From an uncultured delta proteobacterium (GTDB lineage Bacteria > Myxococcota_A > UBA9160 > SMWR01): a stretch of 64,000 nt of DNA. The position numbers and the translations under genes were made by a program. Shown here piece by piece: positions 8,046-61,714 of this stretch (positions are counted from its first letter, which is position 1; each line of letters begins with the position of its first letter). The stretch covers positions 736,001 to 800,000 of the forward strand of contig CAWHTE010000001.1 of the NCBI GenBank assembly GCA_963832165.1, read 5' to 3'. Under the pieces are notes generated by a model. That model made no database searches, was not told the DNA's origin, and saw nothing but the letters and a program-made list of their open reading frames with translations.

Positions 8046-8204
8046 GTTCGCATTCCTCCGGGGTAACTCGCGAACGAACGGGACGATACAGCGCGAAAGT
8101 TTCGAGCCCTTGGGCGCCAGCGCGCCACTACACCATACCTGGGCAGGGCCGCGCGGCCCCGCGCTCCTAGCCGACCGGGCTGCGCGCGATTCGCTGAGGC
8201 GCTC

Positions 8205-8930: not shown

Positions 8931-9023
8931 CAGCCGGCGCGCGCAGCCCGACGTTTGCGCGCGGGCTCCGGATCGTCGAACGTCCCCCGACCGGCCCGGT
9001 CGGGCCGTTCGTAAAGGAGTTCC

Positions 9024-9911
<888 letters not shown>

Positions 9912-9913
9912 TC

Positions 9914-34129: not shown

Positions 34130-34144
34130 CGTGTGCGCGGCTGG

Positions 34145-35935: not shown

Positions 35936-35979
35936 AAGGGCGAAAGTAGGGCGAAAACAGGGCCCGGGTCAAGCCCCTG

Positions 35980-45433: not shown

Positions 45434-46246
45434 TCACATCCGGAAGTGACGCCGGATCAGGCGCAGGCCGAGCCGCTCCGGCAGCCAGCGCTGCGCGAAC
45501 GATACGAGCCTGGCATCCCGACCCACCGCGTAGCGGATGCGCGGATTCCGCGCGCGCAGCGCGCGCAGGACCGCGTGCGCGACGAGCTCGGGGCCGGGCG
45601 CGCTCGCGAGCGAGCGCTCGACCACCTCGCGACAGCGCGCGACGCGCTCGCCATAGCTCGAATCTCTAACTAGATCGAAGTCGGTCGCCTCGTTGAACGG
45701 AGTCCGGATGTCACCGGGCTCGATCAGCGATACGCGGACGCCGGTTCCGATCAGCTCGTTGTGCAGCGCGCGCGCGAGCGCGTCGAGAGCTGCTTTGCTC
45801 GCCGAATAATGAGCCTGGAACGGGATCGGCGCGCGGCCCGCGAGCGAGCCCACGATCACCACGCGCGCAGACTCGGCTCTGCGCAGCGTGGGCAGCGCGG
45901 CGCGCAGCACGCGCAGCGTGCCGAACCAGTTCGTCTCGAACTGCTCGTGCGCGTCGCGCAGCGGAACCTCTTCGACGCTGCCGAAGATCCCGTAGCCCGC
46001 GTTACATACGACTGCGTCGAGGCCACCATTTCGATCGATGGCACTCTGCACGCCCTTCGTCACGGAGTCGTCGTCGCGCACATCCATCGCGACCCACGCG
46101 ATGTGGGGTGCGCGCTGCGCCGCAGTTGCCGGATCGCGCGAGGTCCCCACGACCTGGAAGCCGGCTCGCGCGAGCAGGTCGCTCGCGGCGGCGCCGATGC
46201 CCGACGAGGCGCCCGTGATCAGCACGGACGGTCCGATCGGCCTCAT
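45434..46246 (-). CDS. SDR family oxidoreductase
   Basis: TGASSGIG, NAGYG, YSASK, IEPGDIRT. Confidence 0.9.
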   Translation of the reverse strand: MRPIGPSVLITGASSGIGAAASDLLARAGFQVVGTSRDPATAAQRAPHIAWVAMDVRDDDSVTKGVQSAIDRNGGLDAVVCNAGYGIFGSVEEVPLRDAHEQFETNWFGTLRVLRAALPTLRRAESARVVIVGSLAGRAPIPFQAHYSASKAALDALARALHNELIGTGVRVSLIEPGDIRTPFNEATDFDLVRDSSYGERVARCREVVERSLASAPGPELVAHAVLRALRARNPRIRYAVGRDARLVSFAQRWLPERLGLRLIRRHFRM

Positions 46247-46377: not shown

Positions 46378-46896
46378 ATGCTCCCCGCTGTACCGACTGA
46401 TCTGGAGGCTCTTGTGAGCGCAAACGCAACACCCGTTATCCAAACCCACCGACCCGAGGCGCCTCAGCAAGCGGGCGACTTCCGAGATGGCATTCGGCTC
46501 CTGGCGCGTCTCGCGCGTGTCGCGGAGCAGACCTGCCAGTCCACGGGCATTAGCCTGCCGCAGTACCGGCTTCTCGTCTCTGCCGCCGAAGGGCCGCAGC
46601 GCGCGAGCGAGCTCGCCGCCGCAGTCGGAGTGAGCCGGCCTACGCTCACTTCGCTCGTCGACGGTCTCGAGCAGGCCGGGCTCGTCAAGCGGGTTCCGGT
46701 GGCGAGCGATCGCCGCGGGATCCAGCTCGAGCTGACCCCGGCCGGCCGCGAAGCCACCTTCCGCGCCGAGCGCGCGCTCAGCGTGCGTCTGATGACGCTG
46801 CTGAACGGCGAGGCGGGCACTGTGGTTCCGCTCGTGGGCGGTGTCGTCTCCGACATCCGCGCCGCGCTGGACCGCGAGGGTCGCGAGACTCGCTGA
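46378..46896 (+). CDS. MarR family regulator
   Basis: ISLPQYRLL, VSRPTLTSLVDGLE, DRRG...LTPAG; divergent from the SDR across an AT-rich gap; start could be GTG 46414. Confidence 0.85.
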   Translation: MLPAVPTDLEALVSANATPVIQTHRPEAPQQAGDFRDGIRLLARLARVAEQTCQSTGISLPQYRLLVSAAEGPQRASELAAAVGVSRPTLTSLVDGLEQAGLVKRVPVASDRRGIQLELTPAGREATFRAERALSVRLMTLLNGEAGTVVPLVGGVVSDIRAALDREGRETR

Positions 46897-46935
46897 TCGG
46901 TTCCTCCCCGCGCACGCTGCTAGCGTGCGCGGGGT

Positions 46936-47682
46936 TTGGCGCCGATCGAAGTCATCGACACTGCCTTTCCGGGGCGCGCCGCGTTCGATGTGGCGGTGTC
47001 ACGCGCACTGCTGCGCGAGATTGCGACCGGGAAGCGGCCCGAGACGCTGCGGCTCTATCGTCCCGACGACGTCGTCGCGTTCTCGACCACCGACCTGCGC
47101 TGCGCCGGATTCCCGCGCGCATTGGAAGCCGCGCGCGCCGCGCGATTCGATGCCGCAGTGCGGCTCGCGGGCGGCTCTGCGGCGCTCTTCCACACCGAGA
47201 CGATCGCGTTCGCGTGGTGTGCGCCGGAGGCCGACGAGCGCACGGGCATCCGCGCGCGCTTTGCGCGCACGTCCGACTGGGTGATGCGCGCGCTGCGCCG
47301 GATCGGCGTCGACGCGCGCGTGGGCGAGGTGCCGCAGACCTACTGTCCGGGCGACTGGAGCGTCAATGCGCGCGGCGTGCGCAAGCTGATGGGCGTCGGT
47401 CAGCGGATCATTCGCGGAGCGGTGCACACGGGCGGCGTGATCGTCGTCGGCGACAGCGATCGGCTGCGCGCGGTGCTCGCTCCCGTGTACGCAGCGCTCG
47501 GCTACCCGTTCGATCCCGAGAGCGCGGGCGCGATCGAAGACGAGGTGGGCCCGGTGACGTTCGACGCCGTGCGCGACGCGCTGCTCGCGGAGCTCGCGAG
47601 CGATCGCGAGCTGCGCGCGGGCACGCTCGACGCGGCCGTGCTCGAGCACGCGCAGCGGTTCGAGGCGTCGCACCGGCTTTGA
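46936..47682 (+). CDS. Lipoate-protein ligase (LplA/LipB) family protein
   Basis: TLRLYRP, RLAGG, YCPGDWSV, RKLMGVGQR. Confidence 0.75.
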   Translation: MAPIEVIDTAFPGRAAFDVAVSRALLREIATGKRPETLRLYRPDDVVAFSTTDLRCAGFPRALEAARAARFDAAVRLAGGSAALFHTETIAFAWCAPEADERTGIRARFARTSDWVMRALRRIGVDARVGEVPQTYCPGDWSVNARGVRKLMGVGQRIIRGAVHTGGVIVVGDSDRLRAVLAPVYAALGYPFDPESAGAIEDEVGPVTFDAVRDALLAELASDRELRAGTLDAAVLEHAQRFEASHRL

Positions 47683-47763: not shown

Positions 47764-48726
47764 TTACCGCAGTGCTCCGGTCCGCCACGCGCGGATCAGC
47801 ACGGGCCATCCGAACAGCCACGGGTGCCGGCGCTGGCGCTCGCTCGCTTCGAGCCGGACGCCGGAGTGGCGCTCGACCTTCCAGAGCGCGTAGGGAACCC
47901 AGTCGCCGAACGTGACGGCGGTCTTCGCGAGCTGGAGCAGCCCGATCCACTTCGCGGCCGCACTGCGACCGCTCTCGCGCGGGAGAGGCGTCCGCACGCG
48001 CAGCGCGCCATCGGCGCCGTGTTCGATCGCTCCGCTCTCGAGCAGCGCTGCGAGCGCTTCGGCGAACCGCGCATCGAATCGCTCGCGCTGGTCGTCGTAG
48101 ATCGCGTCGCTCGCGCCTTCGCGCTCGGGGCGCAGCTCGGCGGCGTAGCTTTCGCGGAAGATCTCGCGCCAGAGCGCGCCCGTGTCTTCGGGGTGCCAGC
48201 CGTGCCGGTGCGCCGCGAGCCCCACGCGCAGCGCGGTACAGACGGCATCCGCACACGCCTCCGCGAGCGCATCGCGCGCTGCTGCGTCGCGCACGAACGC
48301 GGCGCCGATCGGCTGCGCGAAGCGTGCCCAGATCCCGCCGCGGTGCGTCTCGCCGCGGCACGCCAGCGCGAGGTCGGCCTTCGAGACGACCGCGTATTTC
48401 GCGCCGAGCCGTGCGCTGCCCGTGCCGAGCTCGATGTAGAACACGTTGGGCGGCAGCAACGCGTTGGCGACCGCGAGTGCGCGCGATCGATACGCCGAGC
48501 GGTAGTCGTCCACGATCGCGTAGAAGTCGTGCACGCCCTCGCTTGTGGCGCGCCGCAGGCAGGAGCCGTAGAACGCGATCGAGGACACCGCAGATCCGTG
48601 GCGCGCGCCGATCTCGCGCGCGAGCGCGGTGGCGTCGGCCGAGATCGGCGCGGAGAGCTCGCGGACCAGGCTCGCGATCAGGCGCGCGCGCGCGTTGCTC
48701 GCGGTGTTCGTCGCGGTGCGCTCCAA
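47764..48726 (-). CDS. Nucleotidyltransferase-fold protein (CpgA/Tam41-like)
   Basis: FYGSCLR...DFY, LPPNVFY, AKYAV, WARFAQP, YAAELRPE, WKVERHSG. Confidence 0.6.
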   Translation of the reverse strand: MERTATNTASNARARLIASLVRELSAPISADATALAREIGARHGSAVSSIAFYGSCLRRATSEGVHDFYAIVDDYRSAYRSRALAVANALLPPNVFYIELGTGSARLGAKYAVVSKADLALACRGETHRGGIWARFAQPIGAAFVRDAAARDALAEACADAVCTALRVGLAAHRHGWHPEDTGALWREIFRESYAAELRPEREGASDAIYDDQRERFDARFAEALAALLESGAIEHGADGALRVRTPLPRESGRSAAAKWIGLLQLAKTAVTFGDWVPYALWKVERHSGVRLEASERQRRHPWLFGWPVLIRAWRTGALR

Positions 48727-48735
48727 ATCGCGACC

Positions 48736-49692
48736 TCAGGCGCGCAGGAAGCGGATCCGGCGGTCGGCACTCAGCTCGATCCGCTCCTCGGGCTCCGGAT
48801 CGAACAGCTCCCCGTCCACGGTGAAGCCACAGCTGATCTGGAGCTCGGCGCGTTCGACCCGTTCGCTCACATAGCCGCGCTCGGGTGTGACCCAGCGCGG
48901 TGGCCGGCCGGCCAGGATTCCGGGCGCCGCGAATCCCATCCACCGCGCGCGGCTCGCCATCCCCGTGATCCGCACACCGCCCGGGCCCGTGCCCCAGAAT
49001 GGATTGATGCGCAGGAACAGCCGCTCGAGCGTGGACGAGATCAGCAGGTACAGCTCGGCGTCGACGAGGTCGCGCCCATCCACGCGCACCTGACACTTGT
49101 CGGGCGTGAGGATCCCCGAGGTCGGACGAAACGCGACCTTGGTCACGAGCGCACCCGTCACGACCCCCGCGCCGAACAGTCCTTGGCTGCGCCCGGGCGG
49201 AAACACGCGGTGCACGAGGCTGATCGCGCGGTAGATCAGTCCGGCGCCGAAGACCATCCCGTACTGGTCGGCAGCGCGCAGCGACGAGCGCACGCGCAGC
49301 ACCGGGCGCGCGACGGCGAGCCGGTCGAGTCGGCCTGCGTCGGCCGCTTCGAGCAGGCGCGCGAGGCCGCGCGCGGGATTGCGGTCGGCGCCGAGGTCGG
49401 TCGAGATCGAGTTCGTGCGGCCGCCGCGCAGCGGCGCCACCGCGGGCAGGGCGACACGGTTCGGGTCGCGCAGCAGCTCGGAGAGCGCGAGTTGAACCGT
49501 GCCATCGCCTCCGTTGAGCACGAGCACGTCGATCGCGCTGCGCTCGAGCTCGGCGAGCGCCGGGACGAGATCGCTCGCGGTCGTGGTCTCCACCCGGAAG
49601 ACGTCGGGGCGCCCGCGCAGGACCTCCGCGACGCGCTGCGCGTCCCGCCCTCGGCGCCCGGCTCGCAGGTTGTTCAGGACGCCTATCCGCAC
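48736..49692 (-). CDS. Diacylglycerol/ceramide kinase family protein (CpgB-like)
   Basis: NGGDGTVQ, LRGGRTN, FTVDGE. Confidence 0.8.
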   Translation of the reverse strand: MRIGVLNNLRAGRRGRDAQRVAEVLRGRPDVFRVETTTASDLVPALAELERSAIDVLVLNGGDGTVQLALSELLRDPNRVALPAVAPLRGGRTNSISTDLGADRNPARGLARLLEAADAGRLDRLAVARPVLRVRSSLRAADQYGMVFGAGLIYRAISLVHRVFPPGRSQGLFGAGVVTGALVTKVAFRPTSGILTPDKCQVRVDGRDLVDAELYLLISSTLERLFLRINPFWGTGPGGVRITGMASRARWMGFAAPGILAGRPPRWVTPERGYVSERVERAELQISCGFTVDGELFDPEPEERIELSADRRIRFLRA

Positions 49693-49695
49693 CGA

Positions 49696-50745
49696 CTAAC
49701 CTCCGGGCCTCATGGTCTTCGCTCGCTGCGCGAAACTTGCGGCGCTGGATTGGGACGAGCTCGGATCTTCCGAGGGGCGGAGCAGGGTGAAGCTCGCGAT
49801 CATCGCGCCGCGCGGCAGGGATTTCCCGGCATTCGACGCGAGCTCCGACGTCGCGTCGGCCCAGATCCGCCTCGGGCGCGCACCGAACCAGTACAGCATC
49901 CGCACGAGGCGCGGTAGAGCGTCGAGCGGGTCGACCGAGAGGTGAGGGGCGCGGATCGCGATAGACCCGCTCAGTGCCCTGCCGGTCGGCCGGATCTGGT
50001 GCGGTAGCGGCGGTCCATCGCCCTCGGCTCGCCAGTCCTCGAGCGCGACGGTCTCCGGGCGCAGCGTCCGCACCCCGCGCGCGCCGCGCCAGCCGAGCCA
50101 GCTCCGCTGCGCGCCGCCCACGAGTCGCTCGTGGACGAACAGCGATGCGTCGTTCGCCGTGAGCCGATGCACGTCGACGCGCAGCGCCGAGACCTCGGGC
50201 TCGCACACGCGGTGGCGCGTGCGCACGACCGTCGCTGCACCGCGCAGCTCGCGCGGCGCGGCCATCCCCGTGCGCCAGACGCGCGCGGTGGCGGGGCGGC
50301 CGAGCACGAGCAGGTCGACTTCGGGGTCGCCCGGAAAGATCCCAACCGACTTCGACCGCGGCGCCTCGATCGCGAGCCGCACCTTCACTCCGCGCCGGTC
50401 GTTGTCCACCTCGAACACCTGCGCGGCCTCGCCGAGCTCGAGCCGGGTCGAGCCGATCCGGACGCGGTCGCCCGAATCGCTCACCTCGAACTCGCCCTCG
50501 CTGCGCCCGTTCTGGAACCGCGTCTGCGTGCCATCCGGCGCGATCCAGAAGCCGACTCCCGCTGCGTTGCGCTCGCCGGGCCCCACGCGCGTCACGATCA
50601 CGCGCGCATACACGCGGTCTCCGCTCGCGAACGCCGCGGTGACGTCCCAGTACACGCCCGCGCAATCGCCCTCGGGCAGGATCTCGGCGCGCGCTCCGAT
50701 CGCTGCGAATGCAAGCGCGAGAAGCGCGGCGATTGCGGCTCTCAT
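49696..50745 (-). CDS. Hypothetical secreted protein
   Basis: Signal peptide MRAAIAALLALAFAAIGARA; ATGA overlap with the upstream gene. Confidence 0.6.
   Translation of the reverse strand: MRAAIAALLALAFAAIGARAEILPEGDCAGVYWDVTAAFASGDRVYARVIVTRVGPGERNAAGVGFWIAPDGTQTRFQNGRSEGEFEVSDSGDRVRIGSTRLELGEAAQVFEVDNDRRGVKVRLAIEAPRSKSVGIFPGDPEVDLLVLGRPATARVWRTGMAAPRELRGAATVVRTRHRVCEPEVSALRVDVHRLTANDASLFVHERLVGGAQRSWLGWRGARGVRTLRPETVALEDWRAEGDGPPLPHQIRPTGRALSGSIAIRAPHLSVDPLDALPRLVRMLYWFGARPRRIWADATSELASNAGKSLPRGAMIASFTLLRPSEDPSSSQSSAASFAQRAKTMRPGG
49708..49740 (-). repeat. Family B repeat, copy 4 (11-nt internal deletion), inside a CDS 3' end
   Basis: The reverse complement GCAAGTTTCGCGCAGCGAGCGAAGACCATGAGG encodes ASFAQRAKTMR. 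Confidence 0.8.
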
Positions 50746-51911
50746 TCCTCCCAGGGTACCGGGGCCTCCCCGCGCGCGCGCTGGGTCTCCGCCCGGACGA
50801 GGCGCAGCGCGTGAAAGCCGAGCGAGGCGATCGTCCACAGCGCGACCATCACGAGCCCGAGGTCGGGTCGGCCTGCGATCGCGCCGACACTGAGCAGGAT
50901 CAGGTTCGGGTTGCGCCGCGCGGTGATCGTGCGGAACAGCCCGTCGATCGGGCGCCAGGAATGCGTCTCGAAGCCGAAGCGCGCCAGGAACGCGCCTTCG
51001 AGCGCGCGCCCGATCACGTATCCAGCCACCACCACGACGGTTGCGAACTCATGGCCCGGTCCCAGCCCCACTCCCCACGCCCACCACCAGAAAGGGGGGT
51101 GGATCAGATCGAGACCGTGGTCCATCACGTCGCCGATCCGGCTCGAGGTGAGCGTGACGCGCGCGAGCTTTCCGTCGACGGTGTCGAGGAACGTCATCGC
51201 CCACGCGCACACGAGGCCCGTGCCGAACGCGCCGCGCGCGAACAGGAGCACGGCCGCGACGGCGAGCACGCCGCTCAGGACCGTCACCGTGTTCGGGTGC
51301 ACGCCGCGCCGCGCGCACCAGTGCGTGACGGCCTGCGCGGGTCGCGGCCATACCCACTTCGTGACGAGGTCGGTCAGTCCCTTGTACGACGCGTCGAACG
51401 TGCGCCGCTCCACCTCGGCGGCCGTGTCGGAGCGGGCCGGAAACACATACGGAGGTTCGCGCTTGCGCAGCTTCGCGACGTAGGCGGCCACGAGCTCGGA
51501 CGGTGCGACGCGGCGCGCGCCCGGCAGCGCATCGGCGTCCGCGCGCGCGAGCGCGGCGCACGCGGCGTGCGCGCGCTCGGACGGGACGTGGGCGCCGACG
51601 GGCCCGAGCTCGGGTGTCACGAGCAGGGTGTCGCGCGCGCCGCGCAGGCCTTCGACGAGGCGCTCGTCGAGCACGACGTCGGCGCGCAACGCGAGCACCG
51701 CCCCGTGCTCGCTTGGCGGAGCCTGCGCGTCGACCACGCGCGGATCGAGGCAGCCGGCGCGCCGCAGCGAGCGCAGCAAGCGCTCCTCGGGGGCGAGCCC
51801 CCAGATCCGCACCTCGCGCGGATCGGCCGCGGGGCCGGAATCGCAGCGCAGATCTCGGCGGACCACCCAGCCCGCCGGTGCCGGCGCAGATTCAGAAGGC
51901 GCGGCGGTCAT
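50742..51911 (-). CDS. CDP-alcohol phosphatidyltransferase with an N-terminal extension (CpgC-like)
   Basis: YKGLTDLVTKWVWP, PNTVT, LDTVDGKLAR...GDVMDHGLD, TARRNPN. Confidence 0.85.
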   Translation of the reverse strand: MTAAPSESAPAPAGWVVRRDLRCDSGPAADPREVRIWGLAPEERLLRSLRRAGCLDPRVVDAQAPPSEHGAVLALRADVVLDERLVEGLRGARDTLLVTPELGPVGAHVPSERAHAACAALARADADALPGARRVAPSELVAAYVAKLRKREPPYVFPARSDTAAEVERRTFDASYKGLTDLVTKWVWPRPAQAVTHWCARRGVHPNTVTVLSGVLAVAAVLLFARGAFGTGLVCAWAMTFLDTVDGKLARVTLTSSRIGDVMDHGLDLIHPPFWWWAWGVGLGPGHEFATVVVVAGYVIGRALEGAFLARFGFETHSWRPIDGLFRTITARRNPNLILLSVGAIAGRPDLGLVMVALWTIASLGFHALRLVRAETQRARGEAPVPWEE

Positions 51912-51961
51912 CGGGCAGCGCGGATCCTATCACACGCTGCCGCGCCGAGTTAGGCTGGTGA

Positions 51962-52894
51962 ATCCCAGCGGAGCCGCCCATCGTCACGCTCGTACACATC
52001 TCGGACCTGCACGCGACGAGCGTGCCGACCTTCGCGCTCGAGCCGCTGCGCTCGAAGCGGTTCCTGGGCTGGCTCTCGTGGCACGTGCGCCGGCGGCGCC
52101 GCTATCTCCCCGCAGTGCTCGAAGCGATGCTGGCCGATCTCGCGGAGACCGCGCCGGACCAGATCGCGATCACGGGTGATCTCACGCAGATCGCGCTCGA
52201 GGAGGAGTTCCGCGAAGCGGCCAAGTGGCTCGAGCGCTTCGGCCCGCCCGGGCGCGTGAGCGCGATCCCGGGCAATCACGACGCGTACGTGGCGGTGCCG
52301 GGCGAACGCGGGTGGCGGCTGTGGTCCGACTATCTCGCGAGTGACGGCGCCGCGTCCGCGTTCCGCGGAGATCCCGCCGAGTTTCCGAGTGTTCGCGTGC
52401 GCGGCGCGCTCGCGCTCGTGGGGGTCTGCACGGCACAGCCGACTCCGCCGTTCGCCGCGACGGGCCGCGTCGGAGCCGATCAGCTCGCGCGGCTCGACGG
52501 CGTGCTCGAGCGGCTCGGCGCGGCGGGCCTGTGCCGCGTGGTCATGATCCATCATGCGCCGGTGGTGGGCCTCACGATCCGGCGGCGTTCGCTGCTCGAC
52601 GCCGCTGCGTTCGGCGAAGTGCTGCGCCGGCGCGGCGCCGAGCTGGTGCTGCACGGCCATCTGCACCGCACCACGCTCGAGGCACTGCCGGGGCCCGAGC
52701 GGCCGATCCCCGTGGCCGGCGTGCCGTCGGGCTCGCACGCGGGTCCCGAGCCCGCGCGCTGTGCTGCCTATCATCTCTACGAGATCGACGGAGCGCGCGA
52801 CGGGTTCACGATCCGCCGCCGTGTGCGCGCGTGGGATCCCGCCCTCGACCGTTTCACCGCGCGCGGGCCCGAGGCGGGCGAGCCGATCGCCTAG
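51962..52894 (+). CDS. Calcineurin-like metallophosphoesterase; start unresolved
   Basis: HISDLH (51995-52012, upstream of the ORF-track start), ITGDLT, PGNHD, IHH, LHGHLH. Confidence 0.85.
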   Translation: MPAEPPIVTLVHISDLHATSVPTFALEPLRSKRFLGWLSWHVRRRRRYLPAVLEAMLADLAETAPDQIAITGDLTQIALEEEFREAAKWLERFGPPGRVSAIPGNHDAYVAVPGERGWRLWSDYLASDGAASAFRGDPAEFPSVRVRGALALVGVCTAQPTPPFAATGRVGADQLARLDGVLERLGAAGLCRVVMIHHAPVVGLTIRRRSLLDAAAFGEVLRRRGAELVLHGHLHRTTLEALPGPERPIPVAGVPSGSHAGPEPARCAAYHLYEIDGARDGFTIRRRVRAWDPALDRFTARGPEAGEPIA

Positions 52895-53682
52895 ATCCCG
52901 CCGTCGCCGGCCGCGAGGATCTTCTCGGCGAGCGCGAGGTCGGCGGCCTTGTCGACGTCGATCGCGGCCACTGCATCGAGCAGCACGGGGAGGATCTTCG
53001 CTCCGGCGCTGCGCGACACCTGGCGCAACCCGCCGTGGAGGTCGAGCGTGCCCGCGAGGTACTCGAGCGCGAGGGTCGGACCGATCGCCGCGACCATGCG
53101 CCACGGCTTCTTGCGGTGGCGCTCTGCGCGCGCGAAGAACTCGGCGGCACGGCGTGCGCGCGCGTGCTGGAACGCGAACAGGTTCGCGCCCGTGTACGAG
53201 CCGCAGCGCAGCCGGATCCAGGTCCGAGCGGCGCTCGCGTCGGCGTCGGCGAACGCGGATCGCTCGACCACACCCACCGCGACGTCGGCCTGGGTCGCCG
53301 CAGCGCCCTCGAGGAAGCGGTCCACGCGCGCGCCCGAGAGCAGCGCGTGATCGGCGGTGGTCACGAGCACGCGCTCGTCACCGATCGAGTCGAGCGCGTC
53401 GGCCACGCTGCGCGCCGGGGACTCCTTGCTGCGGTGCACCGGGATGTCGCGAAACGCCGCGAGCTCGGGCACCGACTCGAGCACCTCGGGCGTGTCGATG
53501 CTGACCCAGATCCGCCCGACGTGGCGCGCGCCGCGCAGCGCGGTGAGCACGCGCGCGAGCATCGGTACGCCTGCCACGGGCAGTAGTGCGCGGTGCGAGG
53601 CGCCGCGCGAGCGCGCGAGCGGATCATCGGGACCGCGGCGCCCCGCAAGCACGAGCGCTGTGTAGGGCTGGATGTCGATCAA
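52891..53682 (-). CDS. MobA-like nucleotidyltransferase
   Basis: ALVLAGRRGPDDPL, LLPVAGVPML, VTTADHALL, GANLF, IDVDK. Confidence 0.82.
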   Translation of the reverse strand: MIDIQPYTALVLAGRRGPDDPLARSRGASHRALLPVAGVPMLARVLTALRGARHVGRIWVSIDTPEVLESVPELAAFRDIPVHRSKESPARSVADALDSIGDERVLVTTADHALLSGARVDRFLEGAAATQADVAVGVVERSAFADADASAARTWIRLRCGSYTGANLFAFQHARARRAAEFFARAERHRKKPWRMVAAIGPTLALEYLAGTLDLHGGLRQVSRSAGAKILPVLLDAVAAIDVDKAADLALAEKILAAGDGGI

Positions 53683-55394
53683 GCAACCGCCTCGCGTGCG
53701 ACGGCCGGCAGTGCGACGCGCTCTGCGCGACCGTCGGCGATTCGGTACACCAGATCGGCGACGCTCGCGAGCGCGGGGTGATGCGAGATCGCCACCACCG
53801 TGGTGCGGCCGCGCAGCGACGCCACCGTCTGCCACACCGCGGCTTCGCTCTCGGCATCGAGCGCGGCCGTCGCCTCGTCGAAGATCAGCAGGCGCGGCTC
53901 GTGCACGAGTGCACGCGCGATCGAGATCCGTTGGCGCTGCCCGCCCGAGAGCAGTGCGCCGCGCTCGCCGACGCTCGCGTCGAGCCCCGACGGCAGTGCG
54001 CGCACGAATTCCCACGCGCCCGCGAGCCGCAGCGCGGCCTCGACCGCCGCGTCGTCGAGCGACGGGTCGCCCAGAGTCACGTTGCGGCGCACGGTGTCGT
54101 GGAGCATCGGGAGATCCTGGGGCACGTAGCCCACCTGACGGCGCCATGCGCCGAGGTCGAGCTCGCCGATCGGCACGCCGTCGATTCGCACGTGCCCCGC
54201 GGTGGGCGACACGAGCCCCGTGATCAGATCGGTGAGCGTGGTCTTCCCGATTCCGGACGCGCCCACCACCGCCGTGATGCATCCCGACGGAATCTCGAGC
54301 GACAGCCCGTCGAACAGCGTGCGGCCGTCGCGCTCGAGGCCGACGCTCTCGATCGAGATCCCACGCGCTAGCTCGACGCGGCGTGCGCCGCCCGACGGCT
54401 CGCACGCCGCTTCGGCCTCGCGGATCCGGCCGTCGATCGCCCAGAGCGCGCTCGTCTCGCTGATCATCGCCTGGTACTTGCCCTGGATCGAGGCGACGCG
54501 CGTGAGCGCGCGCGTGAACACGAGACCGAGCACGAGCGTGCTCGAGAGCGGAATCGAGAAGAGGCGCAGCGCGCCGAACAGGCCCAGCGCGAGCAGCGTG
54601 CCGACCACGGGCTCCTGCAGCGCGCGCAGGGATTCGCGCGCGAGCACGCGGCGCTGGAGCTGGCGGTTCAGGCGCTCGGTGTCGCTGGCCAGGAGCGGCC
54701 CGACCGCCGCCTCGCGCCCAGTCGACTTGAGCAGCTTCACAGCGCCCAGCGTGTCGGTGGTGCGCGTGAGCAGCGAGTCGAGCAGGGCGGTCTGCTTGCG
54801 GCCCGCGCGATGCGCCATGCGCACGAGCGCGGAGAGCAGCAGGAGCATCAGCCCGGCTGCCGCCGCCGCGACCAGAGTGCCGCGCCACGACACCGCGCAC
54901 GCGATCGCCACGTACACGACCGTCTCGACGCTGTAGCTCGCGATCAGCGCGAGGTACTCGAACGCGTACGAAGCGCGGTCGGCCTCGGTCGCCATCGCAT
55001 TGGCAGCGCGGCCGGCCGGCTGACGCGATGAGTAGCTCCAGCGCGCTGCGAGCAGCGCGCGCATCAGGCGCAGCCGGAGATCGGTGGCGATCCGCGCCAC
55101 CGCGTAGCCGACCTGGCGTTTCGAGAGCAGCACCAGGAGGGCCTTGATCCAGAGCGCGCCGACCACGATCGCGAACAGCGGCGCCGGATCGGGCGGAATT
55201 CCGAGCGCGGCGAGCACCTGCCCCACGCGCGCCTCGTAGCCGGTCGATGCGATGTGAGATCCCGTCGCGACGGAGAGCAGCGGGAGCAGGGTGGAGAGGC
55301 CGAGCCCCTCGGTGGCGCCCGCGACGAGCAGCCACACGAGCACGGCGGTGCAGCGCGCCGGATACGCCGTGAGGAAGTAGCGCAGCGTATTCAC
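53679..55394 (-). CDS. ABC exporter, fused TMD-NBD (MsbA-like)
   Basis: N-terminal TM helices; GASGIGKT, LSGGQRQR, IFDEATAALD. Confidence 0.9.
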   Translation of the reverse strand: MNTLRYFLTAYPARCTAVLVWLLVAGATEGLGLSTLLPLLSVATGSHIASTGYEARVGQVLAALGIPPDPAPLFAIVVGALWIKALLVLLSKRQVGYAVARIATDLRLRLMRALLAARWSYSSRQPAGRAANAMATEADRASYAFEYLALIASYSVETVVYVAIACAVSWRGTLVAAAAAGLMLLLLSALVRMAHRAGRKQTALLDSLLTRTTDTLGAVKLLKSTGREAAVGPLLASDTERLNRQLQRRVLARESLRALQEPVVGTLLALGLFGALRLFSIPLSSTLVLGLVFTRALTRVASIQGKYQAMISETSALWAIDGRIREAEAACEPSGGARRVELARGISIESVGLERDGRTLFDGLSLEIPSGCITAVVGASGIGKTTLTDLITGLVSPTAGHVRIDGVPIGELDLGAWRRQVGYVPQDLPMLHDTVRRNVTLGDPSLDDAAVEAALRLAGAWEFVRALPSGLDASVGERGALLSGGQRQRISIARALVHEPRLLIFDEATAALDAESEAAVWQTVASLRGRTTVVAISHHPALASVADLVYRIADGRAERVALPAVAREAVA

Positions 55395-57594
55395 GCGACT
55401 CCCATCATCGCGCGCACGGCGTCCGCGACGGTTGCGCGGTCGTCGCATGCCGCGCCGCGCACGAGCGGGAGTGATCCCGAGAACGGCTGCGCCGCGCCCC
55501 GTTCGATCAGCGCGGCGTGCAGCCGATCGAGGTCGCGCGGCGGCCGCACGTAGCCGCGCTCGATCGCCTTGCCGCACCAGCGCTCGAGTCCGCGCTGCGG
55601 GCGCGGCGTGCCGCGCGGCCCGAGCGGCTTCGCAGTCGCGCGCCGCCACGCCCACTCGCGGAACGCCGACAGTGTGCGGAACGAGGCGCGCACGGGCAAC
55701 GGATAGATCGCCACGGGCCGACCCAGCGATGTCGCCTCGGCGAGCATCGACTCGCTGTCGCCCGTGATCACGAACGCGTCCGCGTGCGCGAGCAGACCCA
55801 GGTAGGGATTGCTCGGATCGTCGGGCGTATAGCGGTGGAGGAAGTGGATCTCGCCGATCGCGGCGCAGAACGCGTCGGTGGCCGCAGATCCGAGCCGGCG
55901 GCTCGTGGTGGCGAACAGCGAGCCGCCGCACGTGCGCGCGAGATCCGCGCACGCGGCGCCGAGCCGCGCGGCTTCGGCCGGGCCGAGCCGGTACTGGCCC
56001 GAGGTGCCTCCGACGAGCACGGCGATCCGCGGCGTGGGCGCATCGGCGAGCCGATCAGCCCACTCTTCGGCCGCTTTCGCGAGCGCATCGCGCGTGACGC
56101 GGTGCAGCGGCCCGGCCGTCTCGATCCGATGCGGGTGGGGAAACAGGCGCGCGTAGTCGGGCGTCACCACGCGATCGAAGAGGTCGGCGTCGTCGCCGGC
56201 CTTGCGCCCGAGCGCGACGATCCGCGCGCGACCCTGCGACTGCGCGCGGATCCACTGCGCGACCGGCGCCGTGCGCCGGCCCGCCGCGATCACGAGGTCG
56301 GGCCACGGCGGCTCGAGCGGCGACGACGCATCGCGATCGATCCCGAGCACAGACGCGCCGAGCCAGCGATTGTGGAGCCCCGACGCGATGCGGCAGCGCA
56401 GGTGCTTCACCTCGTACGGCCACGCGAGCGCCTCGGCGAGCCCGAGCGCCTGCGTAGCGTTGCCGGGGCGATCGTCGCGCAGCACCCAGACACGCGGGGG
56501 TGTCGGTCGCACCCACTGGCCGCCCGTTCGCTGCGCGCTGCCGAACGCGAGCTCGGTCGTGAGCTGCGGATGGGCGCGCGCGGCTCGCGCGAGGAGGACT
56601 TCCCAGCGCTCGCGCTCGCGGCGCGGGCGATCGGGCAGCGCGAGCACGACGCGCTCGCGCGCTCCCGCGCAGAGCTCGGCGAGCAGCCACGGGACGTCGT
56701 CCTCGGGTGCCTCGGCGAGCCACGCCCCTGCGCGCAGCTCGCGCACGGGTCCCGCCGGCGCTGCGCCGGGCGAGGGCGGCACGAACTCGCCCGAGCTCGC
56801 GCCGTGCTCGCTGTCGCTTTCCGCCCACGTGCTGCGCCATTCGGCGTAGCGATCGCTCGGATGCTCGCGCGTGCGCACCTGGAAGCCCTGGGCGTCGGCG
56901 TCGTCCTCGAGTGCATGCCAGATTCCGCCGCTGGCGTTCGGCTGATAGACGTAGCGCTCGGGGAACGGGCGCCACGGCTGCGTGTGCAGTGTCGTGAAGT
57001 GGATCAGCCGAGCGTCGGCGATCACCGCTTCGTCGTCGCGCGCGTTCCACGCCGCATCGAGCGGACCCCACAGGCCCGGCACGGTGTGCGCGCGCGCGTG
57101 CAGCTGATCTTTGGTCTCGCGCTGCGCCGACTCGAGCGTCCAGTGCTCGCGCATCCGGTCGCAGTCGAGCAGCATCACCGACGTATCGCCGGGGCTCACG
57201 CTGCGGTAGCCGCACGCGCCGAGCTCGGTGTCGAAGAGCAGACCCGGATCGCAGCGGTAGATCTGGTCCGTGTCGTTGTAGATCGCCCGGCCGGACCCCC
57301 CGCGAAGTGCGGGATCGCAAAGCGGTACTGCGTGAAGCCGGTGGTCCAGCCCCGCGCGCGGAAGCCCACGAGATCCTTCATCACGTAGATCTCGTAGCGG
57401 CGCCCCGGATCGCGGACCCGCTCGATCGACCACACGAACACGCGCTCGGCGCGCACCTGCGCGGGCTCGCTGCCGAGGAAGATGCGCACGGGGGGCCGAT
57501 TGTTGGCGGGCGCGTCGCGGCGCGCTTCGAGCACCAGACACTCCGGGGCAGCGCGCAGGGCGCTCGCGGCTCGCGATCGGCGGAGCGCGCTCAC
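55391..57594 (-). CDS. Fusion of a GT-A-like glycosyltransferase domain and an ELM1/GtrOC1 domain; one-base frameshift in the C6 run at 57296-57301
   Basis: VRIFLGSE...WTTGFTQYRFAIP | GRAIYNDTDQIY...SVMLLDC...HFTTLHTQPW; the C-terminal part has DLVIAAGRR, VLVGG, TTSRR, NPYLGLL, ITGDSESMLAEA. Confidence 0.75.
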
Positions 57595-58406
57595 GCGCGG
57601 GTGCGGTCGAGCGCCTCGCGAATCGCGACCACGTCGTCGAGCAGGGCATCGAGGTCCGCGAGGCGGATCTGGCACGCGGAATCGCAGGGCGCGTGGTCGG
57701 GATCGGGGTGCGTCTCCACGAACAGCGCATCGATGCCGAGCGCCGCCGCTGCGCGCGCGAGCGGCGCCACGTAGCTGCGGTCTCCGCTGCTCGCTCCCTC
57801 GCCGGCGCCCGGATGCTGCACCGCGTGCGTGGCGTCGAGGCACACCGGCGCCACGCTGCGCATGGCGTACAGGCCGCGCATGTCCACGATCAGATCGTGG
57901 TAGCCGAAGCTCGTGCCGCGCTCGGTGATCATCACGCCGCCGGCGCCGAATCCCTTCGCCTTGTCGACGGCGTGCACGACGTCGTCGGGCGCCATGAACT
58001 GGCCCTTCTTGATGTTGATCGGGAGGCCGGTTTCGGCGCAGGCCTTCACGAGATCGGTCTGGCGCGAGAGGAACGCGGGGATCTGCAAGAGCTCTGCGAC
58101 CTCGGCGATCAGCTTCGCCTGGCCGGGCTCGTGCACGTCGGTGCAAACGGGCAGCCCCGAGGCCGCCTTCACCTGCTCGAGGATGCGCAGACCCGTGTCG
58201 AGCCCGACGCCGCGGTACGAGTCGCGGCTCGAACGGTTCGCCTTGTCGAACGAGGCCTTGAACACGGCCGGCAGCCCGTGGCGTTCCGCGATCGCCGCGA
58301 CGCCGTCGGCGCACGCGAGCGCAATGTCGAGGCTCTCGATCACGTTGAGGCCCGAGATCAGCAGGAGGGGCGAGCCGCCACCGACGGAAATGTCGCGGAT
58401 TCGCAT
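57591..58406 (-). CDS. kdsA: KDO8P synthase
   Basis: FKASFDKANRSS, QIPAFLSRQTDL, KKGQFMAP, ERGTSFGY, DATHAVQ, ETHPDP. Confidence 0.95.
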   Translation of the reverse strand: MRIRDISVGGGSPLLLISGLNVIESLDIALACADGVAAIAERHGLPAVFKASFDKANRSSRDSYRGVGLDTGLRILEQVKAASGLPVCTDVHEPGQAKLIAEVAELLQIPAFLSRQTDLVKACAETGLPINIKKGQFMAPDDVVHAVDKAKGFGAGGVMITERGTSFGYHDLIVDMRGLYAMRSVAPVCLDATHAVQHPGAGEGASSGDRSYVAPLARAAAALGIDALFVETHPDPDHAPCDSACQIRLADLDALLDDVVAIREALDRTRA

Positions 58407-58479
58407 GGGGTTGCCCTCCGGGGCGTCCTGGTTCTCGAGGCGGGCCGGCATTCTGGATAGCGAGACTGGCCCGCGATGG

Positions 58480-59229
58480 CTAACGCGGGGCAAGGGCGGG
58501 TCGAGTCGCGATCTCGCGGCGTGCGCCGTCGAGATCGGAGGAGGAGTCGATCTCCCGCCACCACAGACCGCGCACGCTCGCGGTCTCGACCGCAGAGGCC
58601 TGTGCGATCTGGTGAATCACCGAGAGGTACCACTGGCGCATGGCCTCGGGGCGGCGCACCGCCTCCTCGAGCGCGGTCGCGAACAGCTTCGGTCCGGAGC
58701 CGCGAAACGCGAGCAGACCGATCGATTCACCGCCGACCATCGCGCGCGGCAGGCATTTGTCGACGGCCAGCAGGCGCCCGCGCGCATCGACCGACACCTT
58801 CATGTCGTCGTCGTCGTAGGCCGGCTTGCGATCGATCGCGAGTGCGACCGGCGCAGAGGACAAATCGAGCACGCGCTCGATGACGCCGTCCTCGAAGATC
58901 GTGTCGCCGTTCAGCAGCAGGAAATCCTCGGTCATGGCCCCGCGGGCGAGCCAGCAGCTGATCAGATTGTCGGAGCTGCCGTAGAAGGGGTTGAACAGCG
59001 TTTCACACGCGATGCCGGGTACCGGGTTGGCGGCCAGCCACGCCTCCACGCGTTCGGAGCCGAAGCCGATCACCACCACGGCGCGCTCGACGCCAGCGCG
59101 CGCGAGTGCGCTGAGCTGCCAGCCCAGGATCGGCTCGTCGCCGCGGACCGGCAGCAGGCATTTCGGATTCTCTTCGGTCAGAGGCAGCAGACGCTTGCCC
59201 TGACCGGCGCTCAACACGACCGCCTTCAT
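58480..59229 (-). CDS. Phosphocholine cytidylyltransferase-like NTP transferase
   Basis: LSAGQGKRLLPLT..PKCLL, NPFY...NLIS, LNGDT, DDDDMKV, ESIG, EID. Confidence 0.85.
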   Translation of the reverse strand: MKAVVLSAGQGKRLLPLTEENPKCLLPVRGDEPILGWQLSALARAGVERAVVVIGFGSERVEAWLAANPVPGIACETLFNPFYGSSDNLISCWLARGAMTEDFLLLNGDTIFEDGVIERVLDLSSAPVALAIDRKPAYDDDDMKVSVDARGRLLAVDKCLPRAMVGGESIGLLAFRGSGPKLFATALEEAVRRPEAMRQWYLSVIHQIAQASAVETASVRGLWWREIDSSSDLDGARREIATRPALAPR

Positions 59230-59455
59230 GGCTCCCTTCGACTGGGCCTCATGTGCGGGTGATCTGTGCCGCGGCCGTTGCTCCGAGACGCTCTAGCGCC
59301 CTAGGATTGGCCTCTGAGGGGGCGTCGGAAAGCTGCGTTGATCCCATCGCATTGTCAATGGGACGGGCGGTCGGCCCCACGGGGTTTTCCGGGTAGCTCC
59401 CTCGCGCTCGGATCAGCATCGCGCCCGCCTCCCGCTGAGAGGGTCCCGCGTCGTA

Positions 59456-61714
59456 ATGGCCGGAGTCGAGCCCGCGATCCGCCGTCCCGGCCTCACGCTG
59501 TCGCGTTATGTGGCCCGCGAGGCATTGGGCCCGATCGCGATCGCGGTCGCCGGCCTCACGATCGTCGTGCTCACGCGCGATCTGATCGGTTTCACCGAGC
59601 TCGTACTGAATCGCGGCGTCGGCGCGCTCGAGATGGGTCGCATCACGTTCTTCGAGGCGGTGCAGGTCGCGACCCTGGTGCTGCCGTTCGCGGGGTTGAT
59701 CGGTGCGCTCGTCGCGCTCGGCCGCCTCGGTGCCGACAACGAGATCCTCGCGATCGAGTCGGCGGGCGTGAGCGCGGCGCGCCTGTCTGGGCCGATCGGA
59801 CGGCTCGCCGTGTTGCTCGCGCTCGTGGCCGGATCGCTCTCGCTGTTCGCCGCGCCCGCGGCGCAGCGCGGACTCGAGAGCGCGCTCGCCCGCATCGCGC
59901 GCGATCAGCCGTGGACCCAGATCCGCGCGGGCACGGTGAACCGCTTCGGCGGTTGGCAGCTCGAGGCGAAAGAGGTGACAGCGAGGGGCGACGAGCTGGA
60001 GGGCATCCTGCTCTGGGTGCCCGACATCGAGGAGACGATCTTCGCGCGCAGCGGAAGAGTCGGCGCGGGCGGCAACGGATCGCTCCAGCTCGAGCTCGAC
60101 CACGGGATCCTCGTGCTCTCGCCCGCACTCGGCCCGCGGCAGTTCCGCTTCGACCGCCTCCAGACCGTGCTGCCCAAGAGCGACGAGCCCGGGCCCTGGA
60201 AGCCGACCGATCCGTTCCGGGGCCACTCGCTCCGTTCGCTCCACGCGGCGCTCGACGACGGCGATCGCACGCTCTCCGACGGGGCGAGGCGCGAGTGGCA
60301 CCGGCGCTTCGCGACACCCGTGACCGCAGTGCTGCTCGGCCTGCTCGCTGCGCCGCTGTTCCTGACCCGCGGCCACTTCTCGCGCGCGGGCGGTTCCGTA
60401 CTCGGCATCGCCGTCACGGTCGCGACGTTCGCGCTGGCCCAGCTCGGCGAAGGGCTCACGCAGGCGGGCGTGACCGGGATCGCGAGCGGCGTCTGGCTGC
60501 CGAATGCCGTGCTCGCGACGCTGGCCGCGATCTCGTTCTGGCACGCGCGCCGGGAGGGGGTGTTGCGGCGCTCGCTCGACCGGCTGCGCGGTCGCACGCT
60601 GGCGGCGCTGCCGGGACGGCGGCCCAGCAAGACCCGTCGCCGCGCGCTCGACCGCTACGTCGCCTCGCGCTTCATCCAGCTCGTCACGCTCGCGTTCGGC
60701 GCGATCCTGACCGCGTACCTGATGGTCGACGTGATGGAGCGCCTCGACTGGTTCGCGCGCTACGGCGCGACCGGCGAAGAGGTGGTGCGATTCTACGCCG
60801 CGCGCATCCCACTGCTCGCCTCGCGCGTGGTGCCGATGGCGCTCATGGTCGGGAGCGCGTTGATCGCGAGCCTGCTCGCCGTCGAGGGCGAGCTGACCGG
60901 GATGCGCGCGTGCGGGATTCCGGCGATCCGCGCGATGGTCTCGGTGCTCGTGATCTCGGTGTTGGTGACTCCGCTCTACTTCCTGCTGCGCAACGAGGTG
61001 GTGCCGCGCACGAACGCGATCGCCGATCAGCTCAAGCAGACGGAGATCAAGGCGGACTACTACCTGCGCCTCGCGGAGAGCCGCAAGACCGCGATGTGGC
61101 ACCACGTCGGATCGCAGGTGATCGAGGCCGCGCGCTTCGACCTCGAGAGCGGCGACGCGGTGGACATCACGGTCTACGACCTCGGCGAAGACGGCCTGCC
61201 CGTGAGCCGCGCCGACGCGCGCGCGGCGCGCCACGTCGGCGGCGGCATCTGGCGGCTGCTCGATCCCACGCGCCTCGAGCTCACCAGCGATCACGTCGCG
61301 CGCGTTCCCGCGCGCACGTACGCGGAGCTCGGGAACGAGTTCTCGCGCGAGCTCGACCCGATGCATCTCTCGCTCGGCGAGCTCGCGCACGAGATCGAGA
61401 TGGTGGCTGCCGAGGGATACGACCCGCGCGCGCTGCGCGTCGACTACTACGTGAAGATATCCGAGGCGTTCGCGTGCATCGTGCTGCCGTTCTCGGTGCT
61501 GCTGTTCTCGGTCCTGGGTCCGCCGTTCGCTCCCCCCGCGCAGACGCTGCTCGTGTCCGGGATCCTCGTGGTCGCGCACGTGCTCCTGACCGGCGTCGGC
61601 ACCTCGCTCGGCTACAGCGGCGCGCTGCCGCCCGTGATGGCGGGCTGGCTGCCGAACGGCCTGTTCGCGGGCTACGTCGCGGCGATGGCCGCTCGACTCT
61701 GGAAGCAGATGTGA
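59456..61714 (+). CDS. Fused LptF/LptG-family permease
   Basis: Two tandem YjgP/YjgQ units (RLGADNEILAIESAGVS...VWLPN and GELTGMRACGI...GWLPN); 752 aa. Confidence 0.85.
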   Translation: MAGVEPAIRRPGLTLSRYVAREALGPIAIAVAGLTIVVLTRDLIGFTELVLNRGVGALEMGRITFFEAVQVATLVLPFAGLIGALVALGRLGADNEILAIESAGVSAARLSGPIGRLAVLLALVAGSLSLFAAPAAQRGLESALARIARDQPWTQIRAGTVNRFGGWQLEAKEVTARGDELEGILLWVPDIEETIFARSGRVGAGGNGSLQLELDHGILVLSPALGPRQFRFDRLQTVLPKSDEPGPWKPTDPFRGHSLRSLHAALDDGDRTLSDGARREWHRRFATPVTAVLLGLLAAPLFLTRGHFSRAGGSVLGIAVTVATFALAQLGEGLTQAGVTGIASGVWLPNAVLATLAAISFWHARREGVLRRSLDRLRGRTLAALPGRRPSKTRRRALDRYVASRFIQLVTLAFGAILTAYLMVDVMERLDWFARYGATGEEVVRFYAARIPLLASRVVPMALMVGSALIASLLAVEGELTGMRACGIPAIRAMVSVLVISVLVTPLYFLLRNEVVPRTNAIADQLKQTEIKADYYLRLAESRKTAMWHHVGSQVIEAARFDLESGDAVDITVYDLGEDGLPVSRADARAARHVGGGIWRLLDPTRLELTSDHVARVPARTYAELGNEFSRELDPMHLSLGELAHEIEMVAAEGYDPRALRVDYYVKISEAFACIVLPFSVLLFSVLGPPFAPPAQTLLVSGILVVAHVLLTGVGTSLGYSGALPPVMAGWLPNGLFAGYVAAMAARLWKQM

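Follow-up and report, generated by a model that had tools for sequence, protein, structure and literature searches.

The window analysed here is a 64,000-nucleotide stretch of an uncultured delta proteobacterium (G000:C1:736001-800000), and our subject is a cluster of lipid genes within it (47764..61714) that is likely to make and export an anionic sphingolipid. The host genome (G000) is 5.5 Mb long, 89% complete and 70% GC, and the named homologs of its proteins come from metagenome-assembled genomes (MAGs) of Myxococcota or Deltaproteobacteria. A sequence-only reading of the window had proposed a phospho-ceramide, perhaps decorated with 3-deoxy-D-manno-oct-2-ulosonic acid (Kdo) or other sugars. 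Kdo is known above all from lipopolysaccharide. Every gene it listed was found; it had overlooked a 349-aa gene (49696-50745) and a short-chain dehydrogenase/reductase (SDR) gene (45434-46246), both of which appear to belong to the lipid system. One minus-strand run holds the cpgD-like gene, kdsA, the glycosyltransferase (GT)-ELM1 gene, an ATP-binding cassette (ABC) exporter and a CC_1153-like gene; a second holds the CDP-alcohol transferase, the 349-aa gene, a kinase and a Pfam-negative gene of 320 aa. The phosphoesterase lies on the plus strand and the fused LptF-LptG gene reads away from cpgD. The features are:

45434..46246, minus strand: SDR, candidate 3-ketosphinganine reductase (KDSR-like), outside the cluster coordinates of the sequence-only reading; syntenic with spt in relatives.
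47764..48726, minus strand: CpgC-like protein (CC_1161; Tam41-like according to the paper), 38% identical (E 1e-33) to the Roseomonas gene between kinase and spt, and the sole host match of that gene.
48736..49692, minus strand: CpgB-like ceramide kinase (DAGK_cat; GGDG motif), 31% identical to the Roseomonas cluster kinase and its sole host match.
49696..50745, minus strand: AttH/CrtC/Svf1-type double-lipocalin protein of 349 aa with a signal-peptide-like N-terminus.
50742..51911, minus strand: CpgA-like CDP-alcohol phosphotransferase (CC_1159; PF01066, CDP-OH_P_transf), 44% over 392 aa to the Roseomonas gene.
51980..52894, plus strand: CC_1158-like calcineurin-type phosphoesterase (Metallophos), divergent from cpgA, 45% to the Roseomonas gene.
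52891..53682, minus strand: CC_1153-like MobA/CofC-type nucleotidyltransferase (PF12804, NTP_transf_3), 46% to the Roseomonas gene.
53679..55394, minus strand: MsbA-type ABC exporter, candidate lipid flippase, 44% over 554 aa to the ABC protein beside spt in a Pseudomonas plasmid cluster.
55391..57594, minus strand: fusion of a GT8-like domain (GT-A, DxD) with an ELM1/KdoT-family domain (GT-B, SRR; PF06258, E 8.5e-63, 212.7 bits).
57591..58406, minus strand: kdsA, Kdo-8-phosphate synthase (TIGR01362, 335 bits, cut-off 314), its stop overlapping the GT8-ELM1 start.
58480..59229, minus strand: CpgD-like CTP:phosphoglycerate cytidylyltransferase (CC_1152), 51% to the Roseomonas gene.
59456..61714, plus strand: LptF-LptG fusion in one open reading frame (two PF03739 domains), second (sphingolipid-type) Lpt permease.

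The reference system is the ceramide phosphoglycerate (CPG) and CPG2 locus of Caulobacter crescentus, CC_1152-CC_1168 (CpgA-D, CC_1153, CC_1158, LptF2/G2/C2), as described in the available text of PMC11324152, PMC12275187, PMC13228409, PMC9393093 and bioRxiv 10.64898/2026.04.12.717747. There, cpgA is CC_1159 (CDP-alcohol transferase), cpgB is CC_1160 (ceramide kinase), cpgC is CC_1161 (Tam41-like) and cpgD is CC_1152, and CC_1153 and CC_1158 are reported to be involved in CPG2 formation as well. Since CpgA in the papers is the CDP-alcohol transferase CC_1159, the nucleotidyltransferase-fold protein that the sequence-only reading had called CpgA-like is CpgC (CC_1161) by their naming, and we have renamed it; this protein (47764-48726; 320 aa) has no Pfam or NCBIfam match.

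Head-group comparison. We chose a plasmid cluster of Roseomonas marmotae as proxy query, since its annotated genes correspond to those that the paper lists for CC_1152-1166; the comparison is one-way, with Caulobacter's own proteins outside it. (A primer from the paper's supplement was tried as a route to the Caulobacter locus and gave 3 chance matches in other taxa.) The plasmid carries the same head-group set plus spt, acp, bCerS, HIT and LptF/G, and the best or only host matches of its six head-group proteins all fall in the window, at 31-51% identity. Orthology with the Caulobacter cpg cluster, as first proposed, is thereby borne out for six head-group genes, through this proxy and in one direction. 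For CpgD the comparison can be taken to residues. The structure paper assigns G12, R16, T88, N90, T93, N110, G111, M147, K161, S170 and W201 to CTP and 2-phosphoglycerate in its available text, to which we matched by spacing G9, R13, S86, N88, S91, N107, G108, M143, K158, S169 and W200 of the window protein, so that all published substrate residues are kept except two T-to-S changes. Six of the published residues (N90, N110, M147, K161, S170 and W201) bind CDP-glycerate in the CpgD structures, and in 18/18 aligned orthologs the glycerate-contacting N, N, M and K do not vary. A PDB sequence search with the window CpgD returned no CpgD entry, just distant nucleotidyltransferases.

The phosphoesterase likely starts at an ATC codon, which stands behind GGAG at 51970-51973; the start is ATC or ATT in two relatives of the same genus and in one further member of the family, and ATG or GTG in several others. 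A frameshift at this start was considered and rejected, as ATC/ATT recurs there in relatives. The stretch 51963-52201 is covered by an identical contig, but too close to that contig's end for it to count as bridging.

Conservation in the class. We searched 121 genomes of the host's class and counted per genome; since kin genomes are not independent, these tallies overstate support. Neighbourhoods were fetched for 40 cpgC-anchored loci out of the 58 cpgC-positive genomes (58/121), some of them stopping at contig edges. Gene calls throughout come from a home-made codon model, which under-called some lower-GC loci (e.g. L097, L099). Gene order is conserved in the 40 loci; the counts are 38 for the kinase, 35 for the phosphoesterase, 33 for the CC_1153-like gene, 32 for the 349-aa gene, 23 for the cpgA-like gene and 22 for lptFG. 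The neighbourhood comparison that the sequence-only reading had advised thus finds the cluster recurring among relatives, and the clustering is not chance. By these comparisons the locus very probably holds one-to-one matches of the Caulobacter CPG head-group and export genes, and with them a CPG core.

The loci also vary. A second cpgA-like CDP-alcohol transferase gene is present in 10/40 (e.g. L046, L050, L051, L054, L059), mostly adjoining the CC_1153-like gene, which suggests further head-group variants. A fatty-acid desaturase gene abuts cpgC in 15/40 (e.g. L059:17315-18322); the host has just a weak distant match to it.

Export genes. The ABC protein beside spt on the Pseudomonas plasmid, which matches the window exporter at 44%, has its next full-length host match at 27%. 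The LptF-LptG fusion is additional to housekeeping lptF (C3, beside lpxK) and lptG (C5), and is the best host match, at 27%, of Roseomonas LptF2/G2. The two fusion halves form supported clades of their own in an LptF/G tree, which does not resolve their relation to proteobacterial F2/G2. Caulobacter LptF2/G2 is reported to be essential when anionic sphingolipid is made and to pair with LptB. The 349-aa protein has a predicted structure with a predicted local distance difference test (pLDDT) score of 88, which matches AttH (2ich) with VIA Z 22.4 and a root-mean-square deviation (rmsd) of 3.6 over 277 aligned residues; its Atlas neighbours are CrtC/Svf1, at a low recognition score. Yeast Svf1 is reported to bind ceramide (PMC10038888), and our guess is that the 349-aa protein is a lipid carrier; hydratases and cyclases share its fold.

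Ceramide backbone. The sequence-only reading was correct that no spt, ceramide synthase or kdsB is visible in the window; the genome carries spt and kdsB on other contigs. Its caveat that the genome might lack spt is answered by a gene on contig C7 (832-833 kb), whose top model is NF047600 at 530 bits; the cut-off is 640, and all 66 class spt matches fall below it. The protein has a GTFSKS motif and groups in a tree with spt, apart from bioF, with support 100/99. In the class, 53/58 cpgC-positive genomes have spt, which lies within the cluster in 5/40 loci. In three relative clusters spt is immediately followed by an SDR gene whose best host match (54-64%) is the window SDR, and we give the latter a KDSR-like role because of this synteny; the KdsR model NF049977 ranked third for it at 191.5 bits, short of its cut-off of 400.

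The acylation step is where the ceramide reading is weakest. The bCerS search of the host, 89% complete, gave just a weak GNAT match (23-25%, E about 1e-8), and searches of the same genome gave no AcpR, generic matches but no clear CerR, and no clear AasR. A strong bCerS match (E<1e-30) was obtained in 19 relatives. Another candidate comes from genus g24, where a 268-aa protein with a weak PF00198 acyltransferase match is encoded between lptFG and spt (L060:15264-16067); the host copy is at C1:470195-471040. Among the 66 spt-positive genomes, 46 have this acyltransferase alone, 16 bCerS alone, 2 both and 2 neither, so that it occurs in 46/48 of those without a strong bCerS match. It occurs too in 18/55 genomes without an spt match, and the exclusion pattern comes from few lineages. 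We treat it as a lead, a candidate non-bCerS ceramide synthase, and found no report of such an alternative ceramide acyltransferase in the parts of the literature available.

These gaps bear on an alternative in which the head-group enzymes act on diacylglycerol (DAG) or another non-ceramide anchor. CpgB is reported to phosphorylate DAG too (supplement of PMC11324152, in its available part), 5/58 cpgC-positive genomes lack spt at the threshold used, and no convincing bCerS, CerR or AcpR was found in the host. Set against this are spt in the host and in nearly all cpgC-positive genomes, its place inside the cluster in some relatives, the KDSR-like SDR in the window and the candidate acyltransferase in most spt-positive genomes without a strong bCerS match, and we consider a non-ceramide anchor very improbable. 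The phospho-ceramide (CPG/CPG2) of the sequence-only reading is upheld as far as the head-group genes, second LptFG and spt go; no convincing bCerS was found in the host.

The glycosyltransferase. In the host assembly a single-base frameshift within a run of six Gs (57296-57301) breaks the GT8-ELM1 gene in two. The gene is whole in relatives (716-837 aa), and no stop occurs on either side of the host break. Fragments or start-less calls make up 821/5420 host gene calls; the assembly is indel-rich and broken calls are as expected. Because relatives are whole and so many host calls are broken, the frameshift is likely an assembly error. It does count against a working decoration step as assembled: were it real, the gene would be dead in this strain and just CPG/CPG2 made. 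The assembly does show the shift, and no same-strain read or contig over the site was seen in public runs (no run with >0.10 of words, and no RNA run either); with the break in a homopolymer, intact relatives and the general state of the assembly, a dead gene seems very unlikely.

The predicted structure of an intact same-genus GT8-ELM1 has a pLDDT of 94. Its N-terminal domain matches the GT8 protein 3tzt (Z 17.3, rmsd 2.8, 189 aligned) and LgtC 1g9r (Z 16.4), and its C-terminal domain (residues 345-716) matches GT-B folds at Z 16-19. The DxD motif is present in 122/122 aligned fusions. Pfam GT8 gives no match for the fusion and matches two split relatives at E 0.015 and 2e-5, so the N-terminal domain is best described from its model as GT8-like GT-A, not a proven GT8 member. 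SRR is kept in 115/122 aligned fusions (SRRL 76, SRRT 35, SRRV 4) and reads TTSRRL in the window. The available text of PMC12856342 describes Acinetobacter KdoT as an ELM1-like, proven CMP-Kdo transferase onto Kdo2-lipid IVA that needs the arginines of its SRRT; the window SRRL would be the equivalent motif, as judged from that text, not from an alignment. A PDB sequence search with the fusion returned nothing significant. An ELM1 tree was rejected for assigning function, having no KdoT included and a long-branch outgroup. We think it likely that GT8-ELM1 adds sugars to the sphingolipid, with Kdo the likeliest first sugar and a possible cap.

Some relatives carry variants of this enzyme. In genus g23 (L047, L049, L053, L056, L058, L061) the kdsA-adjacent fusion keeps its GT8-like domain and has a degenerate ELM1 domain, SRR being absent in 6/6 copies checked; these genomes carry other, intact ELM1 genes. 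Many class relatives have second ELM1 loci (L076-L091, e.g. L083, L084, L088), where 2-3 ELM1 genes stand with split GT8-like genes, sulfotransferases, 2-oxoglutarate oxygenases, LpxL-type acyltransferases, an LptFG fusion and an ABC exporter. Such loci suggest variants that are sulfated glycolipids; the host has a single ELM1.

Acceptor. ELM1 is found in 39/121 class genomes, namely 38/58 with cpgC and just 1/55 with lpxC and no cpgC; the ELM1-positive, cpgC-negative genome, G084, carries cpgD together with the LptFG fusion where a contig ends. GT8-like and ELM1 genes, fused or split, also lie inside spt/cpg clusters on plasmids of alpha-, beta- and gammaproteobacteria, with no lipid A genes listed there. 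Of 17 metagenome ELM1 loci, nine are beside cpg genes, four are orphan copies and four are too short. Close GT8-ELM1 homologs also turned up in MAGs of Sphingomicrobium, a relative of Sphingomonas; Sphingomonas itself is reported to be without lipid A. The host has the lipid A genes that the sequence-only reading had proposed to look for (lpxA, lpxB, lpxC, lpxK and waaA) and kdsB (C11); its lipopolysaccharide (LPS) genes are on C3, far from the ELM1 cluster.

Other observations pull away from a sphingolipid acceptor. ELM1 is absent from 20/58 cpgC-positive genomes. Further, lpxC accompanies ELM1 in all 39 class genomes that carry the latter, the acceptor proven for KdoT is given as Kdo2-lipid A in the available text of PMC12856342, LpxL-type genes flank some ELM1 loci, and genus g2, which has kept cpg and is without lipid A genes, is also without ELM1 and kdsA. 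Apart from the 20/58 count, these are what would be seen if GT8-ELM1 were an LPS inner-core enzyme like Acinetobacter KdoT with a partner, ELM1 and kdsA being co-located envelope genes and the sphingolipid plain CPG/CPG2; the fetched stretch of a Sinorhizobium ELM1 locus, which shows no sphingolipid gene, fits this as well. Because of the lpxC in every ELM1-positive genome, lipid A keeps some probability as the acceptor. Set against an LPS role are the near-restriction of ELM1 to cpgC-positive genomes, the plasmid clusters, the Sphingomicrobium homologs and the distance to the host LPS genes, and we regard that role as unlikely. Of the two acceptors, we favour the sphingolipid clearly.

Lipid-A-poor relatives were seen during these searches. 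Two genomes of genus g2, in the host's family (G003, L029, 96% complete; G086, L037, 97%), have cpg, spt, the LptFG fusion, housekeeping LptF/G and LptD, and searches of both gave no lpxC, lpxB, waaA, kdsA or ELM1 match; the genus is a candidate for natural lipid-A-free, sphingolipid-only diderms. All six genomes of genus g29 (G041, G043, G070, G074, G085, G118) have spt and no match to cpgC, lpxC or kdsA; two that were tested gave no waaA, lpxB or LptF/G, and one that was tested gave no LptD.

Donor. The sequence-only reading had suggested Kdo decoration and a check for a second kdsA. No second copy was found in the host, where kdsA has one tblastn match and its sole copy also serves LPS. The claim is plausible, and on a reason not given at the time: KdoT, the CMP-Kdo transferase, belongs to the ELM1 family. 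The kdsA of the cluster is not a dedicated second copy. Donor and acceptor of GT8-ELM1 are both putative, because kdsA is single-copy, serving LPS, and every ELM1 genome of the class has lpxC.

In the class, kdsA lies within 15 kb of cpgC in 29/56 genomes with both, and touches GT8-ELM1 in 13/19 cluster loci that hold it. Other genomes link ELM1 to Kdo genes separately: kdsD, a divergent kdsA (47%) and kdsB flank the ELM1 genes of G107, and kdsB and kpsF are near ELM1 on Sinorhizobium pSymB. NeuB and a CMP-synthetase beside a fusion in G047 are counted as a further separate link. ELM1 was found in none of the 12 kdsA-negative class genomes. A search of the host for KpsF/KdsD gave no full match, just a partial SIS match below cut-off.

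Several counts weaken the link to Kdo. The gene kdsA is required for LPS anyway and is single-copy in 108/109 class genomes with a match. It stays in the cluster without GT8-ELM1 in 5/19 loci, stands beside SRR-less fusions in 6/6 genus-g23 copies checked, and adjoins the same acyl-CoA dehydrogenase in f4 genomes that are cpg-negative. The 17 metagenome ELM1 loci yielded no kds gene, and none is listed in three plasmid clusters with ELM1. In other families kdsA has a different conserved site, beside a polysaccharide locus (26/40 kdsA-centred loci). Because kdsA stays where ELM1 is missing or degenerate, its adjacency to ELM1 seems to reflect one or two old relocations, not repeated recruitment.

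With the CPG/CPG2 core unchanged, GT8-ELM1 could then decorate the sphingolipid from another donor (another CMP-ulosonate, CDP-glycerate in a TagF-like CMP-releasing reaction, or UDP-sugars), kdsA being a housekeeping passenger moved in once. The single kdsA with its different ancestral site in 26 fetched loci and the proteobacterial copies without kds neighbours speak for such a donor, as do NeuB and a CMP-synthetase beside a fusion in G047, the CDP-glycerol glycerophosphotransferase-like gene CC_1167 that the available text places in Caulobacter's own cluster, and the generic nature of the nearest GT-B folds. The sole bacterial ELM1 proteins described as characterised in the sources available transfer Kdo, however, and the kept SRR, the separate kds links and the lack of ELM1 in kdsA-negative genomes point the same way; a non-Kdo donor seems to us rather unlikely. 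Kdo is the most likely donor, as judged from family and context.

Two candidates examined in this connection were set aside: the Sinorhizobium glycosyltransferase beside ELM1 as kin of the GT8-like partner (E 0.05), and, as a Kdo transferase, a gene family adjoining kdsA in G081 and in the G100 cpg locus that looks peptidase-type by eye. G100 itself (L124, L138; 88% complete) keeps kdsA, kdsB and kdsD and gave no lpxC, lpxB, waaA or ELM1 match; its kdsA and kdsD are among sphingolipid-type ABC, AttH-fold and LptFG genes, which could mean Kdo used off LPS or missing contigs.

Proposed pathway. Spt (contig C7) and the window SDR would yield sphinganine, from which an acyltransferase would make ceramide. 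CpgB would phosphorylate the ceramide, and CpgC, CpgD (supplying CDP-glycerate), the CC_1153-like protein, CpgA and the CC_1158-like protein would, as their orthologs do, lead to CPG/CPG2. With CMP-Kdo supplied through KdsA of the window and KdsB of C11, the ELM1 GT-B domain may then attach Kdo to a free head-group hydroxyl, and the GT8-like domain may use an NDP-sugar to extend the product by another sugar. Flipping of the lipid would fall to the ABC exporter. By analogy with Caulobacter LptF2/G2, onward transport towards the outer membrane would be the task of the LptF-G fusion together with the shared LptB. Taken whole, with a Kdo-capped sphingolipid at its end, this chain has in our judgement somewhat less than an even chance of being right. 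More tentative still is an LPS-like lipid that combines ceramide-(di)phosphoglycerate with Kdo and a GT8-like extension, MsbA-type flipping, a fused LptF-G, a non-bCerS acyltransferase and, in a lipid-A-free sister genus, reliance on the sphingolipid. The LPS-like lipid of the sequence-only reading therefore fares unevenly: a CPG/CPG2-type core very probably stands, and its Kdo part stays plausible.

Comparison with known systems. As far as the available descriptions go, the locus shares with that of Caulobacter all six head-group gene types, the phosphoesterase divergent from cpgA-cpgB-cpgC (order as in the Roseomonas proxy), a second LptF/G beside the housekeeping set, the CpgD substrate residues, spt in the genome and the presence of LPS genes. 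It differs in that its spt is Bacteroidota-type by hidden Markov model rank and lies outside the cluster, in having no match to acpR, HIT, DUF2141 or a Wzx-type cluster flippase and no clear aasR, cerR or bCerS, and in the MsbA-type ABC, fused LptF-G, AttH-fold protein, GT8-ELM1, kdsA and KDSR-like SDR of the host. With Acinetobacter baumannii KdoT and GnaT (available text of PMC12856342 and PMC10936431) the fusion shares the ELM1 family PF06258, a predicted GT-B fold, both SRRT arginines (SRRL here) and a second-GT partner. KdoT works with a GT4 enzyme, whereas the window domain is fused to a GT8-like GT-A, and KdoT belongs to a lipooligosaccharide core locus, not a sphingolipid cluster; the two were compared by description, not sequence.

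The plasmids Pseudomonas sp. JS425 pPNP1 (L071), Roseomonas mucosa p1-AD3 and Diaphorobacter pDCB2 (L075) are also close, with cpg genes, LptF/G and GT8-like plus ELM1. The pPNP1 fusion is 36-69% identical to the window parts and stands with the same ABC (44%); GT8-like and ELM1 are split in Roseomonas mucosa and Diaphorobacter. Unlike the host's, these three clusters have spt, acp and aasR inside and no kds gene in their annotated records. The metallophosphoesterase, Zn-protease and Asp-hydroxylase of the Pseudomonas cluster have no host match. The pathway is mobile, because the ELM1 sphingolipid clusters L071 and L075 are on IncP-type plasmids near insertion sequence and transposon genes. 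Judged by the gene tests available, the system is of the Caulobacter CPG/CPG2 pathway type, but reaches its backbone by another route and carries an extra glycosylation module.

With the CPG core, the anionic sphingolipid pathway of Caulobacter reaches about half (58/121 genomes) of a large uncultured Myxococcota class. Caulobacter sphingolipid is reported to be able to stand in for lipid A (available text of PMC9393093). Should ELM1 indeed attach Kdo to a ceramide lipid, anchors capped with this sugar would extend beyond lipid A and capsule lipids, and acceptors of the ELM1 family would be of two kinds. The literature searched, most subscription journals being outside its coverage, yielded no paper that describes Kdo-ceramide or places an ELM1 enzyme within a sphingolipid cluster. 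Cultured carriers of the module (Pseudomonas sp. JS425, Roseomonas), as well as Caulobacter, offer a test of the claim. Two side leads concern ceramide formation in spt-positive bacteria without bCerS and natural LPS loss outside Sphingomonadales.

Other parts of the window. By eye, 7600-11100 and 34000-36000 hold generic genes of the kind usual in this lineage, among them a CoA transferase, a MoxR/VWA pair and radical-SAM-like fragments, unconnected with the finding. Between the SDR and cpgC (46378-47682) are a MarR regulator and a lipoate-ligase-like gene, and MarR is there in 5 family loci. Next after lptFG, from 61711 to 64000 and onward, is the gene of a large secreted protein whose C-terminus looks metallohydrolase-like by eye; the gene is frameshifted near 63100, and its homologs occur in 8/40 loci, mostly after lptFG and an acyl-CoA dehydrogenase.

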